A stretch of DNA of 12,110 nt. Origin: a virus. Taxonomy: Duplodnaviria > Heunggongvirae > Uroviricota > Caudoviricetes. Under the pieces are notes generated by a model that saw nothing but the letters and a program-made list of their open reading frames with translations, ran no database searches and was not told the origin of the DNA. The DNA is taken from positions 1 to 12,110 of the IMG/VR virus record IMGVR_UViG_2778261454_000009; one strand, 5' to 3'. Below are positions 1-12,110 of the stretch, one piece after another (position 1 is the stretch's first letter; each line of letters begins with the position of its first letter). A program made the translations under genes and the position numbers.

Positions 1-1194
1 ATGATCACCGACACAAAGCTCAGGAAGGCGCTCGGCAAGAAAAGAGATGATATCGAGATTATTTCTGATTCGCACGGGCTCAACGCCAGAATCAGCCAGG
101 CCGGAAAAATATCATTTTTCTATCGGTATCGCTGGGCCGGTAAAGCGGTAAAACTCAATGTTGGTGATTATCCTGCAATGAGTATCACCCAGGCAAGAGA
201 GCGTCGCCAACAATTCAGAAACTGGTTAACTGAGGGACTGGATCCGCGAGAGCAGGTGAAGCTGGATAAGCAGACCCGACAGGAAGCGATGTCCGTTGCC
301 GAAGCGTTCAATTACTGGATTGAAAGGCACTGTATCGCTAACGGGCTAGTTAAAGTCGATTACTATCGCCAGGTGTTTGAGAAACATATCGCCGAACCGA
401 TGAAGAATGTCAAAGTCGATAACACAGCGAAAATGCACTGGATCAACGTCTTCGATTCTATAGAAAGCAGGGTGATGGCTCATTACATGCTTTCGCTGTG
501 CAAACGGGCGTTTAGGTTCTGCGTTAACAGAAGTGTGATCGCCTCAAACCCACTCGAGGGATTACTGCCATCTGATGTCGGGCAAAAGCCTAAAAAGAGA
601 ACTCGCAGGATGGACGATGACGATCTGCGCAAAATCTATCAGTGGTTGAAAAGCCATATGTCGATAGAGTCCGTTTTCCTGGTGAAATTTATTATGCTTA
701 CCGGATGCCGTACGGCTGAGATTCGACTTAGTGAGAGATCATGGTTTCGATTGGATGATAATGAGTGGGTCGTGCCTGCGGGCAGTTATAAAACTCGGGT
801 ACATATTAGAAGGGGACTCTCAGACGCCGCCGTTAACCTGGTCAGAAATCACCTCAAGAAAATAAACACCAATCACCTGGTGACTTCACAACGTAAAATT
901 GATGGCGGGATCAAAGATTCGCCCGTTCATTCACCTGTGGCATCCAATTACGCCCGTTCTATTTGGAATGGAACAGGTATGGCAGAGTGGTCGCTTCATG
1001 ATATGAGGCGGACGATAGCCACAAATCTCTCTGAGTTAGGTTGCCCGCCGCACGTAATTGAAAAGCTGCTCGGGCATCAGATGGTGGGGGTTATGGCGCA
1101 TTACAACCTTCATGACTATATCGATGATCAGAAACACTGGCTCCGCGTTTGGCAGAGCCATCTTGAAGAGATCATCGGAGAGCCCTTCAGTTAA
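1..1194 (+). CDS. int: Tyrosine site-specific integrase with N-terminal arm-type DNA-binding domain
   Basis: 397-aa ORF from ATG at 1. N-terminal arm-binding-like motif (FFYRYRW...[13 protein letters not shown]). C-terminal catalytic boxes [14 protein letters not shown] and LGHQ...MAHYNLHDY give the R-H-R-Y signature. The window starts at the start codon, so promoter and att site are not visible and the true start could lie upstream. Confidence 0.9.
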
Positions 1195-6386: not shown

Positions 6387-6593
6387 CTAGTGGCTGAGTC
6401 CATGCCCCAGACCGTTCAGATAAACTTCAACCAGCAAATCCTTGGTGTAAGTCATTTCTACGCCGCGATGCAGATACAAACGTCCGCGAGCGTTAGCTGA
6501 TGCCGTCCAGGTTGAGTCTTTGTGTTTGACGAGCATCCCCGGCTGAACTGCGCCGCGGTTTACTGTCTGTGTACCGTAGTGCTGATGAACCAT
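6387..6593 (-). CDS. Small protein, first gene of the leftward early operon (KilR position by synteny)
   Basis: The ORF track's 116-aa version starts at a TTG (6737) with no usable RBS. The in-frame ATG at 6593 (MVHQHYGTQTVNRG...) is preceded by GGAGAA at about 6 nt and gives a 68-aa product. Function is inferred from position only. Confidence 0.55.
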   Translation of the reverse strand: MVHQHYGTQTVNRGAVQPGMLVKHKDSTWTASANARGRLYLHRGVEMTYTKDLLVEVYLNGLGHGLSH

Positions 6594-6845
6594 GATGTTC
6601 TCCAGTTTTTCTGAGTGAACTTCGCTGGTGGTGCCGCGGCGCTGATCTTCACGGTTGAGCGTTTTAACTCTGCAATTCACCACCGCGAAGCTCACTCTGT
6701 GCTTTGCCCTTGTCGCCAGGCTGGCGGAACGTTTCAAACCTACTGCGCGTTAATCTCACCACCTCATTCCGGTCTTCGTATGCCCCGGACGGCTACTTCG
6801 TGGGCTCCATGCCTGGGTGGTTCGTGGTGCGTCTTGGTGATTGCA

Positions 6846-6874
6846 TATTAAGCCTGAGACTTAAATCATGTCAA
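6846..6874 (-). promoter_or_regulatory. PL-like sigma70 promoter for the leftward operon
   Basis: Minus strand reads TTGACA (6874..6869), a 17-nt spacer, then TTAATA (6851..6846). The spacer and -10 contain the operator palindrome also found at the rightward promoter. Confidence 0.5.
6848..6864. promoter_or_regulatory. Putative repressor operator, 17-bp near-palindrome (OL-like)
   Basis: TTAAGCCTGAGACTTAA is the exact reverse complement of 9062-9078 and is itself a 14/17 palindrome. An additional half-site TCAGGCTTAATT lies at 6902-6913. Confidence 0.45.
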
Positions 6875-7015
6875 GCTCCAGGCGAAATGTGATTGTAAGT
6901 TTCAGGCTTAATTGTGATGTTCACCGAATTGCAGGCAAAAAAAATCCCGACGCTAAGGTCGAGATCGGGGACTTCGTGGCTGGGTGTTGGCGGCTGAGAT
7001 GGTGGGTGAGGGTGT

Positions 7016-7045
7016 AAAAAACCCGGCGCTGTGGCCGGGTTTTTT
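7016..7045. terminator. Bidirectional rho-independent terminator
   Basis: AAAAAA-CCCGGC-gctgtg-GCCGGG-TTTTTT: a 6-7 bp GC stem with a 6-nt loop, flanked by an A-run and a T-run. It starts 2 nt after the stop of the 34-aa ORF and separates the AT-rich unit from the PL-like promoter. Confidence 0.65.
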
Positions 7046-7047
7046 CA

Positions 7048-7152
7048 TTACTGCTGGTTAAATCCTTTCGGCGAGTGCTGCTGTTCTTTATTACCAAATT
7101 TTTGATTTACAATGATTTTATAAGCGTTATTGAGAGCTTGCTTTATAGACAT
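7048..7152 (-). CDS. Small ORF (34 aa) co-transcribed downstream of the HslV-like gene
   Basis: Hand translation MSIKQALNNAYKIIVNQKFGNKEQQHSPKGFNQQ. AAGGAG lies 6 nt upstream of the ATG at 7152, 17 nt after the upstream gene's stop. It ends 2 nt before the terminator and is AT-rich like its neighbour. Short ORFs are prone to false calls. Confidence 0.35.
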   Translation of the reverse strand: MSIKQALNNAYKIIVNQKFGNKEQQHSPKGFNQQ

Positions 7153-7169
7153 TAATATCTCCTTATGTG

Positions 7170-8474
7170 TTATTGACGATTAAAGTAGTTAGAGTTTAGC
7201 TCTTTAGGGAAGTAGTGTTTACGATTTACCCAAACAAATCCATCAACTTTTGATATCACAGCGACATCAACAGGCCCACCGACAGTTTCATAATCATGTG
7301 ATACTTTTCTTTTGAATGCAGTGATGTTCACTAATGATTCGGCCATATACGCAAGATCTGCCTTCCCAAGTGATTGCAACATCGATATCATTTTATTTGT
7401 ATGGTTATTAACAATATAGCTTTCAAGTTTAGTATCGTGATCTTGTAAAAGTACGTTTTTGAGTTCCTCAATTTCACTGGAGAAGTGATTGGCTAGTACT
7501 CCATTGTTCATTGCAGGGAAAATATTGCTAGAAACATAATGATTAAGCCGATCAAAAACTTCCTCTGTAAGAGTTCTGTTAAAATTAATGATGTTAGGGT
7601 TGCACCCATCAATGAAAGTTACTACTTCATCTTCTTGAGCAAATGGTATAACAAACCCCATATTGGTTACCTCATTATGGGATTTATTATCAATATTATG
7701 GATCATCAATTTGTTTTTAAAAATGCCGTAGATATGAAGAGTGCAAATGGAAGGGTAATATTCTTCCTCTCCATAACCTGTTATAACAATCCCTGAATAT
7801 GTACGACTAGCATGGACTTTGAAAATTAAATAAGTGGAATATAATATGACTTTTTCCATAAGCTCTTGCTGTATATTTTCACAGTTATCAAGAACAATAA
7901 TTGATGAAATGTATGGCGATATTAAATCTTGTATATATGCTAAAGCATCATTAAACTCTTCTGTATCAAACCCTTCGAAAAAGAGATTATTCCTTAAGAT
8001 TCCTATCTCTAAATCAAAGGCTTGCTTAACTATGTTTTGAAAAATAACATTGTCGAGTTCAACGGCGGGGTTCATTGTTAAATAGTTTACTACATTATTA
8101 TCATTAATGTATCTCATCAAACCTTTGAGGTTATCAACAACAAGGTTTATAACGCAAGCCTCTCTCATTTCATTTGTTATAAGGTCTGAGTTACCATTGA
8201 TGAATTTTACAAAGTCATTAACATATTCTTTAATGGTAGGGAAACTAGTTTTCCCCAATTGTTTTCTATAGGATTTAATTATAAGTTCCCACGGTGCGCC
8301 ACCCAGTGTCGCATTATTATAAATCATGATCCCCACGGGATGGTGTTTAGATAGTTCGAATAGTTTTTCCGCACTATTATTTATTTTTACTAATCTATTA
8401 TGCTCTGTGGTGACTGCAGAGTCAGCAGCAAGGGCGATTCCAGTATTATTTATTACAACAATCTCAGCTGTCAT
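7170..8474 (-). CDS. HslV/20S-proteasome-beta-like N-terminal-nucleophile hydrolase homolog with a large insertion
   Basis: 434-aa product from ATG at 8474 (the track's longer form from 8573 has no RBS). The ORF is about 33% GC. N-terminus MTAEIVVINNTGIALAADSAVT...NNSAEKLFEL parallels HslV [24 protein letters not shown]...KKVRRL and 20S beta [21 protein letters not shown]...KNCSKIHFI, with Thr directly after Met, Asp at 17 and Lys near 33-36. Mid-protein IVITGYGEEEYYPSICTLHIYG and C-terminal DYETVGGPVDVAVISKVDGFVWV resemble the corresponding T1-family strands. The GSG loop is not recognisable. Comparison is from memory, not a search. Confidence 0.6.
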   Translation of the reverse strand: MTAEIVVINNTGIALAADSAVTTEHNRLVKINNSAEKLFELSKHHPVGIMIYNNATLGGAPWELIIKSYRKQLGKTSFPTIKEYVNDFVKFINGNSDLITNEMREACVINLVVDNLKGLMRYINDNNVVNYLTMNPAVELDNVIFQNIVKQAFDLEIGILRNNLFFEGFDTEEFNDALAYIQDLISPYISSIIVLDNCENIQQELMEKVILYSTYLIFKVHASRTYSGIVITGYGEEEYYPSICTLHIYGIFKNKLMIHNIDNKSHNEVTNMGFVIPFAQEDEVVTFIDGCNPNIINFNRTLTEEVFDRLNHYVSSNIFPAMNNGVLANHFSSEIEELKNVLLQDHDTKLESYIVNNHTNKMISMLQSLGKADLAYMAESLVNITAFKRKVSHDYETVGGPVDVAVISKVDGFVWVNRKHYFPKELNSNYFNRQ

Positions 8475-8502
8475 TGCAAAACATCCCGTGTAGTAGTGAT
8501 AA

Positions 8503-8531
8503 ATATTAATTAAATTGATAGTTTTTTTCAA
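8503..8531 (-). promoter_or_regulatory. Candidate sigma70 promoter for the HslV-like unit
   Basis: Minus strand reads TTGAAA (8531..8526), a 17-nt spacer, then TAATAT (8508..8503), about 30 nt upstream of the ATG at 8474. Confidence 0.45.
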
Positions 8532-8615
8532 TCTAACATAAATGGCGGAATCACCCCCCAGTAAAGACATCATTGTCTCATGGGAACTAAAAATTCAGGA
8601 CAAACCTAAAGCGAT

Positions 8616-9002
8616 TCAGTCCCCCTGCGAGCGAATCCGCCCCTTCATGTACTTCTCATACAGCTCATCCAGTTCCTTAAGACGTATCGAAAAGATGCGG
8701 AGCATGTTCTGTTGCTCTTCTTCTGGAAGCTGGCGGTAGAGCTCAAGCAGGCGCTGTTCGTCCGGCTTAAGTCCGTCCTTCTCGCCGACATCCTCACCGA
8801 GTAACCAAGGCACAGACACGCCAGCTGCGTCAGCGACAGCGAGAGCTGATTTCTTGCTGATCACGCCTTTTTTAAACCAGCCGTTCACAGACTGCGGGGT
8901 TACCCCAGCAACCCTGGCCATATCGGATTTGGTCATACCGCGCCCGTTCAGCTCTGAAAGGCGTTCGACAAGTATCGGATTAAGTACGGTTTTCTCTTTC
9001 AT
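8616..9002 (-). CDS. CI-like immunity repressor, XRE-family HTH transcriptional regulator
   Basis: 128-aa ORF with a canonical HTH (MTKSDMARVAGVTPQSVNGWFKKG) and a helical C-terminal region. It is divergent from the Cro-like gene, with shared operators in the intergenic region. No obvious S24 peptidase domain, as in RacR/DicA-type repressors. Confidence 0.8.
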   Translation of the reverse strand: MKEKTVLNPILVERLSELNGRGMTKSDMARVAGVTPQSVNGWFKKGVISKKSALAVADAAGVSVPWLLGEDVGEKDGLKPDEQRLLELYRQLPEEEQQNMLRIFSIRLKELDELYEKYMKGRIRSQGD

Positions 9003-9050
9003 GGTTAGAAGAATAAGCCTTTTGCTTAAACTTGAAAATTCGCCTCAGGC

Positions 9051-9080
9051 TTGACAATAAATTAAGTCTCAGGCTTAATT
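9051..9080 (+). promoter_or_regulatory. PR-like sigma70 promoter for the rightward operon
   Basis: TTGACA (9051-9056), a 17-19 nt spacer, then a TTAATT/TAATTT -10-like element (9075-9081), followed by GGAG and the ATG at 9107. This is a mirror-image copy of the PL-like cassette. Confidence 0.5.
9062..9078. promoter_or_regulatory. Putative repressor operator, 17-bp near-palindrome (OR-like)
   Basis: TTAAGTCTCAGGCTTAA lies between the -35 and -10 of the PR-like promoter and is the exact reverse complement of 6848-6864. A related half-site CTCAGGCTTG at 9044-9053 overlaps the -35. Confidence 0.45.
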
Positions 9081-9106
9081 TGATTGTATTCAAATCGGAG
9101 ACAACG

Positions 9107-9325
9107 ATGAACGGGTTAACGAAAGCCATTAAGTCCGCTGGCACTGCAACAAATCTCGCAACCATGCTGGGCATCAAGCCGATGTCGGTCAGCCGCTGGA
9201 AAAACCGGTACCAGGGCATGGTGCCTGCTGATCGGGTCCTTCAAATCTACGCGGCTACCGGCGTAACTCCACACGAGCTGCGCCCTGATCTCTATCCAAA
9301 CCCAAGTGACGGTTTACCAAAGTAA
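9107..9325 (+). CDS. Cro/YdaS-like small HTH regulator
   Basis: 72-aa product from ATG at 9107 with GGAG 6 nt upstream (the track's longer ORF from 9032 lacks an RBS). HTH ATMLGIKPMSVSRWKNR and the HELRPD motif are typical of the YdaS family. It is divergent from the repressor. Confidence 0.7.
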   Translation: MNGLTKAIKSAGTATNLATMLGIKPMSVSRWKNRYQGMVPADRVLQIYAATGVTPHELRPDLYPNPSDGLPK

Positions 9326-9336
9326 GGAATGTAACT

Positions 9337-9876
9337 ATGCAATCACTTACGTATCAACAGAGTAACGGGTTCATTTCAGCAGCGCTGATAAATCGCGCTC
9401 AACCAAAACCGGGCGTCAGTTGTGGTGCCCTCCGTGATGCTGTTCGCGCCTGGTCAGCAGTAGCCGGGCAGGACGTTGTAACGGCCCTGATCGTTGAAGA
9501 GTGGCACCGGATAGGTGGCGAAGGTATCGACTTTCCGGCAGATCACAGCCGTGCCCGGCAGAAGCTGTTCCGCTTCCTGGATAACCATTTCAACAGCGAA
9601 CGGTACCGCGAGAACGTCCGCCAGCTGACGCCGGCAATCCTCGCTGTCCTGCCGATTGAATACCGCAATCGTCTGCTACCAGAAGACAACGTAATGGCTC
9701 GTCTGGCAAGGCTGGAGAAGGAAACCAGCGAAGCGAAGATTGCTGTCGCAATGGATGCGCCACGTCATCAGAAGCTGAAAGAGTTGAGCGAGGGGATCGT
9801 GGAGATGTATCGCGTTGACCCTGGGTTAACCGGTCCGTTGATGGAAATGGTGCAGATTATGCTGGGGGCTATATGA
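9337..9876 (+). CDS. YdaT-like protein (cII-like regulator / putative toxin YdaT family)
   Basis: 179-aa ORF 11 nt after the Cro-like gene, with AAGGAA RBS. The motif LTPAILAVLPIEYRNRL resembles the conserved PAILAILP segment I recall from Rac YdaT. Gene order matches ydaS-ydaT. Confidence 0.6.
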   Translation: MQSLTYQQSNGFISAALINRAQPKPGVSCGALRDAVRAWSAVAGQDVVTALIVEEWHRIGGEGIDFPADHSRARQKLFRFLDNHFNSERYRENVRQLTPAILAVLPIEYRNRLLPEDNVMARLARLEKETSEAKIAVAMDAPRHQKLKELSEGIVEMYRVDPGLTGPLMEMVQIMLGAI

Positions 9877-11502: not shown

Positions 11503-11561
11503 CCATCAAAAATCTGGTGATGCTTCGCCGTTTCTCCTGTTTTCATAACAGGAGAAATCCC

Positions 11562-12110
11562 ATGATTTACGGTTATGCCCGAGTATCAACAAACCACCAG
11601 GACACTGAATTGCAACTAACGGCGCTCAAGTCAGCGGGTTGTGAGAAAATTTTTGAAGAGCATGCCAGCGGGAGGAAATCGAATCGGCCGGTTCTAAAAC
11701 GGCTGATCGCCACTATGCAGCTGGGGGATGAACTGGTGGTCTGGAAGCTGGACAGGATAGGCCGCAACGTTCTGCATGCGCTGTTGATGTTCCAGCAGTT
11801 ACAGGAAAAGGGTATCAACTTCCGCAGTATTACCGATGGCGTGGATCTCAAAACAGCCAGCGGCCGCTATAACTTTCGTAACATCCTTTCCGCAACACAA
11901 TATGAATCTGATCTTAATAGCGAACGTACCTTAGCAGGGCTGGCCGTAGCCAGGGCAAAAGGGCGAGTTGGTGGTCGCAGGCCTAAGTTCACGGATGAGC
12001 AATGGCGGGAAATGGGGGAGCGGATGGCAACCGGTGAATCACGACAAAGCGTATCAAAAACGTATGGAGTAGGGCTCTCAACTCTGTATAAAAAGTTTCC
12101 AGCTAGCTGA
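11562..12110 (+). CDS. Serine DNA invertase, Hin/Gin/Pin/Cin family
   Basis: Start at ATG 11562 (GGAG 7 nt upstream; the track's start at 11454 is an upstream extension). MIYGYARVSTNHQDTELQ... has the catalytic-Ser N-terminus; LVVWKLDRIGRN and INFRSITDG match the resolvase core; the C-terminal HTH ends ...LSTLYKKFPAS (compare Hin ...LSTLYKKHPA). The window ends at its stop codon. Confidence 0.85.
   Translation: MIYGYARVSTNHQDTELQLTALKSAGCEKIFEEHASGRKSNRPVLKRLIATMQLGDELVVWKLDRIGRNVLHALLMFQQLQEKGINFRSITDGVDLKTASGRYNFRNILSATQYESDLNSERTLAGLAVARAKGRVGGRRPKFTDEQWREMGERMATGESRQSVSKTYGVGLSTLYKKFPAS

Follow-up and report, generated by a model that had tools for sequence, protein, structure and literature searches.

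An immunity region of a Rac-like Escherichia coli prophage with paired operator triplets and a predicted leaderless repressor transcript

In phage lambda, the repressor and cro genes are divergent and are accompanied by three partly symmetric 17-bp operators about 24 bp apart, with centres at approximately -19, -42 and -66 relative to the repressor ATG. The lambda cI gene is expressed from both PRE and PRM. In prophage CP-933P of E. coli O157:H7, the immunity region has been described with the regulators PaaR2, YdaS and YdaT (PMC8630535, PMC9986795). PaaR2 is reported to form octamers, and its transcript is leaderless by 5'-RACE, N-terminal sequencing (MQKKE) and mass spectrometry (PMC8630535). 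The Gifsy repressors of Salmonella are uncleaved, and small LexA-controlled antirepressors remove them from DNA, also across heteroimmune phages: GfoA and GfhA inactivate heteroimmune repressors (PMC3121763). The antirepressor Rem relieves DicA of Qin, for which spontaneous switching is also described (PMC10448788).

We analyzed a stretch of 12,110 nucleotides from a Caudoviricetes record (hereafter the window), which is a lambdoid, Rac-like E. coli prophage. Its backbone (int, recT, recE, ydaE, kil, ydaS, ydaT) is that of Rac, and its features are collected in Table 1. A leftward operon encodes RecT, a RecE-like exonuclease (1079 aa), YdaE and Kil. The Cro-like protein belongs to the YdaS family (E = 1.3e-14) and is all-helical, its nearest solved structure being Xfaso Cro (3bd1). 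The product of the following gene matches YdaT (E = 2.5e-23) and the CII-like PHROG (E = 4.6e-54), and further rightward lie the replication genes O and P and a serine recombinase. A helix-turn-helix (HTH) repressor gene divergent from a Cro-like gene, with CII-like and replication genes next, is the gene order of a lambdoid switch. The first-pass annotation of this DNA had proposed divergent repressor and Cro-like genes flanking an operator palindrome, and both the gene identities and the site searches agree with it; the Cro-like gene begins with the ATG at 9107 and not at 9108. We consider it very probable that the intergenic feature is the OR region of this prophage, with a leaderless PRM, repression through OL and OR, and induction by an antirepressor.

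Table 1 Features of the immunity region and its surroundings in the window
Feature	Position	Strand	Description
Integrase gene	1-1194		Left end of the window
PL	6845..6874	-	TTGACA-18-TAATAT, 10/12 matches, called independently by the promoter scan
OL1	6848..6864		Centre 6856; TTAAGCCTGAGACTTAA, exact reverse complement of OR1
OL2	6871..6887		Centre 6879; TCAAGCTCCAGGCGAAA, paralogous to OR2, overlaps the PL -35
OL3	6895..6911		Centre 6903; GTAAGTTTCAGGCTTAA
Terminator-like hairpin	6943..6966	-	T-run, for leftward transcription; upstream of OL
Second hairpin	~7016-7045		Flanked by A and T runs
Accessory gene	7170..8474	-	434 aa, low GC; between the repressor gene and the terminators
Repressor gene	8616..9002	-	128 aa; N-terminal HTH_3 resembling that of the 434 repressor, conserved helical C-terminal domain
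Putative PRM -10	9010..9015	-	TATTCT, 7 nt before the repressor ATG
OR3	9013..9029		Centre 9021, -19 from the A of the repressor ATG; ATAAGCCTTTTGCTTAA
Putative weak PRM -35	9033..9038	-	TTTTCA, 17-bp spacer; read from the letters
OR2	9038..9054		Centre 9046, -44 from the A of the repressor ATG; ATTCGCCTCAGGCTTGA
PR -35	9051..9056	+	TTGACA
OR1	9062..9078		Centre 9070, -68 from the A of the repressor ATG; TTAAGTCTCAGGCTTAA
PR -10 region	9074..9082	+	CTTAAT (9074-9079, 17-bp spacer) or TAATTT (9077-9082, 19-bp spacer)
Cro-like gene	9107..9325	+	72 aa, YdaS family; Shine-Dalgarno GGAG at 9097-9100
YdaT-family gene	9337..9876	+	CII-like

Three sites of 17 bp, spaced by about 24 bp and sharing the half-site TTAAGyCT, lie between the divergent genes. 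OR1 is the core of a 23-bp palindrome (9059-9081, 10 of 11 arm pairs), which a repeat search returned as an inverted repeat with 11-nt arms (9059-9069 and 9071-9081, 91% complementary, 1 nt apart). The same kind of search gave a family of direct repeats with three copies, at 9010, 9035 and 9059 (spacing 25 and 24), and the motif CTCAGGCTT occurs twice, at 9044-9052 and 9068-9076, 24 bp apart. OR2 is a weak site with one good half-site; it and its counterpart OL2 are recognisable mainly by their mutual similarity and their conservation, not as palindromes. With up to three mismatches allowed, the pattern TTAAGYCTNAGRCTTAA has four matches in the window against 0.14 expected, and none of 200 shuffles reached four. 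If at least 10 of 11 arm pairs are required, the window has two palindromes; shuffles have 0.13 on average, and two were reached in 4 of 300. It is thus unlikely that this set of sites arose by chance. A further palindrome, ATTTGA-N6-TCAAAT at 9078-9095, was considered as an additional site and rejected, as it is not conserved in SEN34-type relatives.

The register of the sites relative to the two promoters is nearly that of lambda, with centres at -19, -44 and -68. As in lambda, a strong O1 lies over PR, a weak O2 near the PRM -35 and O3 over PRM. OR1 overlaps the PR spacer and -10, OR2 overlaps the PR -35 and adjoins the putative PRM -35, and OR3 overlaps the putative PRM -10, so that related, partly palindromic operators cover both divergent promoters, as in a lambdoid switch. 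The 17-bp palindrome of the first-pass annotation can be read directly from the letters at 9062-9078, and the related site that it saw over the PR -35 is real, being the copy of CTCAGGCTT 24 bp upstream. The palindrome was also said to sit between the hexamers of PR; TTGACA does precede it, but it overlaps the -10 and is not strictly between them. Two of the six operator sites had been seen in that reading, which missed OR3 and the whole OL/PL set and did not bring up the ambiguous PR -10 or the lack of a self-cleavage domain in the repressor.

The -10 of PR is non-canonical, poor, and ambiguous between its two candidates. A promoter scan of 8500-9500 called neither PR nor PRM, and both were therefore assigned from hexamers read by eye and from conservation. 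A -35-like hexamer is found at a constant offset from O1 in all four classes of related loci that are described below.

The longest exact match that the intergenic region has elsewhere in the window is an inverted 18-mer, TTAAGTCTCAGGCTTAAT, at 6847; it consists of OR1 plus one flanking base, and its exact reverse complement is at OL1. Of the OL sites, OL1 and OL3 were found by the pattern search, and an OR2-like third site lies between them. When OR is aligned to the reverse complement of OL all three sites align, and 59 of the 102 alignment columns are invariant. The OL triplet is inverted relative to OR and 2.2 kb away from it, comparable to the second operator triplet over PL in lambda. 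PL reads leftward into the kil/ydaE/recE/recT operon, with OL1 between its -35 and -10 and OL2 over its -35, which mirrors the arrangement at PR. The segment 6848-6911 with TTGACA-18-TAATAT is the OL/PL region of the prophage, and a second operator set over a leftward early promoter is again characteristic of lambdoid switches. OR and OL operator sets, and a PL that resembles PR, are also found in CP-933P.

The OL copy bears on whether the palindrome might function as RNA, either as a terminator or attenuator or as a stabilising 5' structure, instead of as a protein-binding site. The segment 9055-9110 does fold, to -11.9 kcal/mol with a z-score of -2.7. However, the identical 18-mer is inside the core of a second promoter, PL, and OR2 and OR3 are in register with OR1 yet make poor hairpins. 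We rejected the hairpin reading, which we regard as having almost no chance of being correct, on three grounds: no U-tract follows the hairpin; with either -10 the palindrome is mostly upstream of the PR start and would be largely untranscribed from PR; and relatives keep the half-sites with a variable centre, a pattern for which no pairing is needed.

To place the locus among its relatives a protein-level search was needed, as a DNA search of the phage collection gave one partial match only (PHB10). Relatives of the repressor, taken from phage records and from one genome per species, provided 30 usable loci, or 31 with the window. The repressor family as a whole comprises 916 database clusters and joins a nearly invariant C-terminal domain to at least four DNA-binding specificities. 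When the loci are sorted by the repressor HTH they fall into four classes, each with its own operator, and because the 30 loci are interrelated they amount to about four independent classes and not to 30 independent samples. Class A (HTH TKSD...TPQSVNG, operator TTAAGyCTnAGrCTTAA) contains the window, Salmonella phages SEN34 and SW-37, and prophages of Atlantibacter, Citrobacter and Phytobacter. Class B (TKAD...TPQAVNG) includes phage PHB10 and has the operator GTAAATnnnnGGTTTAC (GTAAAT..GGTTTAC). Class C (SKTE...SKQAV(S/T)G) includes mEp237 and has the operator GTAAAnnnnTGCTTTAC (GTAAA..GCTTTAC). Class D (S(A/S)QSVNN, operator yTAAACnnnnTGTTTAA) consists of loci L007 and L019-L025.

The geometry of the sites is the same throughout. 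In every class O1 has its centre at 65-68 nt from the repressor ATG, and O3 at about 18 nt wherever it was scored. Of the 30 loci with a defined O1, the window counted, 26 have a class-matched copy of the O1 type, corresponding to OL, at a distance of 0.5-2.8 kb past the repressor gene. Class A members conserve the three operator sites, the hexamers of both PR and PL and the Shine-Dalgarno sequence of cro, with variable spacers between these elements; at OR2, class A relatives keep ATTCGCC...GrCTTGA. Over the four classes the repressor HTH, the Cro HTH and the OR and OL sites co-vary with site positions constant. Judged from the sequences, this combination of co-variation and fixed geometry is the pattern that would be expected of operators read by the adjacent regulators, and neither chance nor an RNA hairpin would easily account for it.

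As both proteins change with class, co-variation alone does not separate binding by the repressor from binding by Cro, and it would also suit sites that serve the YdaS-type Cro protein only, with the 128-aa protein binding elsewhere or not being the immunity repressor. We regard this as very unlikely. In every studied lambdoid switch the operators are common to both proteins, and in CP-933P, which also contains YdaS, the PaaR2 and YdaS footprints overlap (PMC8630535). Furthermore, the strongest site covers PR and PL, the promoters that a lysogenic repressor must silence, and the repressor HTH tracks the operator class over the 31 loci. Operators shared by the repressor and Cro are the preferred reading.

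The repressor start must be at 9002, as this is the first start codon past an in-frame stop and the invariant residues begin at R14; it is the sole start upstream of the invariant residues R14, L15 and E17. This agrees with the first-pass annotation, which also saw a weak ribosome-binding-site-like sequence there; we find no Shine-Dalgarno sequence ahead of this ATG, where the upstream sequence is ttcttctaaccATG. The repressor start codon of lambda likewise has none. By contrast, all cro genes of the family are preceded by GGAG or AGGAG. The putative PRM reads TTTTCA-17-TATTCT on the minus strand (9038..9010). Its hexamers suggest a weak promoter, in line with a need for activation, and its -35 adjoins OR2.

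In none of the 31 loci does the repressor gene have a Shine-Dalgarno sequence, and in each of them a -10-like hexamer ends 6 nt (in the window and locus L008, 7 nt) upstream of the ATG. Depending on the class, the hexamer is TACAAT, TAGAAT, TAAAAT, TACACT or TATTCT. With this spacing the transcript is predicted to have its 5' end at the A of the ATG or directly beside it. The PRM of CP-933P, obtained here by joining published primer sequences of the immunity region, has the corresponding arrangement GATAAT + 6 nt + ATG, and its transcript is leaderless by experiment (PMC8630535). The conserved geometry and this proven analogue support a leaderless repressor mRNA in the window element, and with it the weak or leaderless PRM-type expression that had first been offered as speculation.

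An alternative is that the repressor is translated independently of a Shine-Dalgarno sequence from a leadered mRNA, made from a PRE-like or other upstream promoter, and that PRM is not leaderless. A leftward promoter-like site at the cro/ydaT junction (9357..9328) could provide such a transcript, and in Gifsy-3, a longer form of the repressor is made from a promoter upstream when the prophage is induced (PMC3121763). The one route does not exclude the other. As a replacement for the leaderless reading, we give the leadered one a minor but real share of the probability: four operator classes of differing sequence all have the -10-like hexamer at 6-7 nt from the ATG, and the spacing is the same as in the proven leaderless paaR2 (PMC8630535). 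A leaderless PRM transcript thus remains the reading that we prefer.

In the 128-aa repressor, Pfam identifies HTH_3 only, and a C-terminal S24 peptidase domain with an Ala-Gly cleavage site, as in self-cleaving repressors of the lambda cI/LexA type, is absent according to Pfam and NCBIfam. Beyond the HTH, we found no sequence similarity to lambda cI. A short protein with an N-terminal HTH and no cleavage domain has the architecture of GfoR and GfhR of Gifsy-1 and Gifsy-3, which are likewise short uncleaved repressors with a variable HTH and a conserved C-terminal domain. A single-sequence AlphaFold model shows an N-terminal domain of five helices that a linker joins to three C-terminal helices; its pLDDT of 63.7 is too weak for a fold search, and only the helix pattern of the model was used. 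Searches of solved structures with the repressor and with the family profile gave the 434 repressor HTH as the nearest DNA-binding domain, as a weak match, and no structure for the C-terminal domain. Matches to polyubiquitin and BurrH structures were discarded because they arise from summed repeats. There is almost no variation in the C-terminal domain (GLKPDEQRLLELYRQLPEEEQ...RLKELDELY.KY) among the four specificity classes.

The relationships of the repressor to described families are of different kinds. NCBIfam reports a weak full-length match to DicA (NF007257), and at 34.4 bits, against a cut-off of 101, the repressor is not a DicA orthologue and was not assigned to that subfamily. With PaaR2, only the C-terminal half aligns: BLASTP gives 43 aa at 21% identity (E = 9e-4), and hhalign gives 77% probability over 71 columns (E = 2e-5). 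By these scores, the C-terminal halves are probably remotely homologous. Membership of the PaaR2 family was rejected, as homology is not full-length and the N-terminal domain and the operators differ. For GfoR, the primer le144, used to clone gfoR of Gifsy-1 from strain 14028, encodes KEKTHQIN, which is the N-terminus of the class D proteins L019-L021; these are 72-73% identical to the window repressor. By the evidence available, which for GfoR consists of these eight primer-derived residues, the window repressor would group with the Gifsy GfoR type. The homologue in mEp237 carries an annotation of similarity to a 14028S regulator, and it has the upstream in-frame ATG described for GfhR*. The GfoR N-terminus matches class D, whereas the window belongs to class A and has another operator specificity; operator sequences of GfoR and GfhR were not found stated in PMC3121763.

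As there is no S24 domain and the repressor appears to group with the GfoR type, induction is probably through an antirepressor and not through RecA-stimulated cleavage. By analogy with these systems, induction most likely depends on a small antirepressor encoded outside the window, and the conserved C-terminal domain is its likely target; near-invariance of this domain across classes fits the action of GfoA and GfhA on heteroimmune repressors. No antirepressor gene was recognised within the window, in which it differs from the Gifsy phages with their LexA-controlled GfoA and GfhA. A search of the window for LexA boxes gave one CTGT-N8-ACAG match (7869-7884), which is inside a gene and compatible with chance. 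The missing antirepressor gene, together with a GfoR link of eight residues, would also fit a switch that is of the lambda type in all respects, with a repressor inactivated by RecA-stimulated cleavage or by host proteases. We consider this improbable, given a 128-aa protein with HTH_3 only and no S24 domain. The closest repressors with experimental data, GfoR/GfhR and DicA, are uncleaved and are relieved by antirepressors (PMC3121763, PMC10448788), and PaaR2, which shares this architecture, is unresponsive to mitomycin C (PMC8630535). Induction by an antirepressor is therefore retained in the scheme that follows.

By analogy with lambda and CP-933P, the locus would form a bistable switch. In the lysogen, repressor dimers would occupy the strong sites OR1 and OL1 and, probably cooperatively, the weak sites OR2 and OL2, and PR and PL would be silenced; PR would be blocked because its spacer and -10 lie under OR1 and its -35 under OR2. 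Repressor at OR2 (centre -44) would probably stimulate the weak PRM, whose mRNA would be leaderless given a TATTCT hexamer 7 nt before the ATG. At high repressor levels OR3 (centre -19, overlapping PRM) would also be filled and PRM shut, giving negative autoregulation; alternatively, OR3 would serve for the shut-off of PRM by Cro. Once the repressor is gone, Cro made from PR would bind, presumably at OR3 first, and lock PRM off; this YdaS-type Cro presumably fills the sites in reverse order to the repressor. The same repressor would act on PL through OL1-3. A loop between OL and OR is possible, and is made plausible by the 2.2-kb spacing and by a possible relation to the octameric PaaR2.

Based on this computational evidence, the locus appears to be a real, ordinary and rather complete lambdoid immunity switch. 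It combines the tripartite OR and OL of lambda, the YdaS/YdaT partners and leaderless short repressor of CP-933P, and a non-cleavable repressor of the Gifsy/DicA type. Unlike lambda, it has a 128-aa repressor without a self-cleavage domain of the S24 type, an all-helical Cro of the YdaS type and a YdaT-family protein in the CII position. The short lambdoid repressors of Qin (DicA/DicC) and Rac (RacR/YdaS/YdaT) are, as in the window, encoded divergently from a Cro-like gene. CP-933P resembles the window in its short, peptidase-less repressor and its YdaS- and YdaT-type partners, but its DNA-binding region and operators are unrelated (PaaR2 half-site GTTTAGTAA, four inverted repeats), its YdaS has no detectable similarity and its YdaT is 28% identical. 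The site TTGATT-N6-AATCAA of CP-933P YdaT has no meaningful match in the window. An accessory gene lies downstream of the repressor gene in both lambda and the window, where the 434-aa gene takes the position of rexAB; in CP-933P this cargo is a toxin-antitoxin pair. No match to the 434-aa protein was obtained in PADLOC, Pfam or NCBIfam.

In the literature, we found no experimental study of the window's immunity type. The operator and promoter map of this type is now complete, with OR1-3, OL1-3, PR, PL and a putative leaderless PRM. The geometry of a leaderless repressor transcript, as proven for CP-933P, holds throughout a large family of repressors that are short and non-cleavable. The general understanding of lambdoid switches is unchanged, and the main value of the analysis lies in the family-wide co-variation table over four classes, which predicts homoimmune prophages, and in the almost minimal Ser/Ala contrast of classes A and B. 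The HTHs of these two classes differ at two Ser/Ala positions only (KSD/QSV versus KAD/QAV), and their operators mainly at two positions per half-site (TTAAG versus GTAAA); further differences between the proteins lie in other parts of the DNA-binding domain and in the N-terminal arm. We suggest, tentatively and with the odds against it, that the two Ser/Ala residues alone reprogramme specificity and that antirepressors have a common docking surface in the shared C-terminal domain. If both were true, the family would hold a simple natural recognition code and a route of cross-induction for heteroimmune prophages across genera.

Beyond the Salmonella phages SEN34 and SW-37 and the Citrobacter, Atlantibacter and Phytobacter prophages, the immunity type is present in 13 of the 5,426 complete E. 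coli genomes, which contain the whole stretch 6700-9400 at 99-100% identity. A further 76 E. coli genomes match this stretch in parts, and those listed match at the query ends only, which is consistent with prophage mosaics that bear other immunity regions.

Across the helix-turn-helix, class A repressors, to which the repressor of the window belongs, differ from those of class B at two Ser/Ala positions only (KSD/QSV in class A versus KAD/QAV in class B), based on a comparison of repressor residues 21-45 (8868-8942 of the window) with the loci L003 and L010-L014. In their operators, the two classes diverge at two positions of each half-site (TTAAG versus GTAAA), and the N-terminal arms of the repressors are also dissimilar. 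In phage mEp237, the annotated N-terminal extension of the repressor spans the operator region. This form, known from annotation, recalls GfhR*, the longer form of the Gifsy-3 repressor that has been reported on induction (PMC3121763).

Features of the window, and the repressor of the related mEp237 locus
Feature	Positions	Strand	Details
mEp237 repressor (L001)	2917-3384 of L001		annotated with N-terminal extension from in-frame upstream ATG
Stretch from predicted PL start to Kil-matching part of ORF 6387-6737	6593-6838	-	~245 nt
Low-GC gene	7170-8474 (ORF up to 8573)	-	434-467 aa
LexA-box-like sequence	7869-7884		CTGTATATTTTCACAG; within low-GC gene
Promoter-like site of low-GC gene	8531..8503		TTGAAA-17-TAATAT
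Perfect inverted repeat	9078-9095		ATTTGA-N6-TCAAAT; between PR -10 region and cro Shine-Dalgarno sequence
Leftward promoter-like site	9328-9357	-	TTGATA-18-TACATT; where cro-like and ydaT genes meet
23-bp palindrome	11533-11555		TCTCCTGTTTTCATAACAGGAGA; 10/11 arm pairs
Serine recombinase gene	11562-12110		182 aa

The low-GC gene, with a GC content of 0.30-0.37 compared with ~0.5 in its flanks, lies between OL and the repressor gene, where lambda has rexAB, and is followed by terminators. Its product matched only PHROG 5990 (unknown function), with no match in Pfam, PADLOC or NCBIfam searches. Given its rexAB-like position, it may be an accessory or exclusion gene expressed in the lysogen. The LexA-box-like sequence within it is the single CTGT-N8-ACAG match in the whole window, and is probably due to chance because 21 of 200 shuffles contained at least one match.

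The Kil match of ORF 6387-6737 begins at residue 42 and is preceded by an in-frame, arginine-rich N-terminal extension (MKRSASLATRAKHRVSF...). The stretch between the predicted PL start and this match may be a leader, a small gene of its own or a portion of Kil.

The leftward promoter-like site is located at a place equivalent to that of PRE in lambda and of PRE933P in the O157:H7 prophage CP-933P. The CP-933P YdaT binding motif is absent here.

The perfect inverted repeat ahead of the cro-like gene is found in a near-identical Atlantibacter locus. Class A relatives of the SEN34 (Salmonella phage) type lack it, which makes it unlikely to be a conserved site. Besides the OR palindrome, the window has only one strong 23-bp palindrome, which is directly upstream of the serine recombinase gene and contains its Shine-Dalgarno sequence. 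It might serve in autoregulation or as a crossover site.
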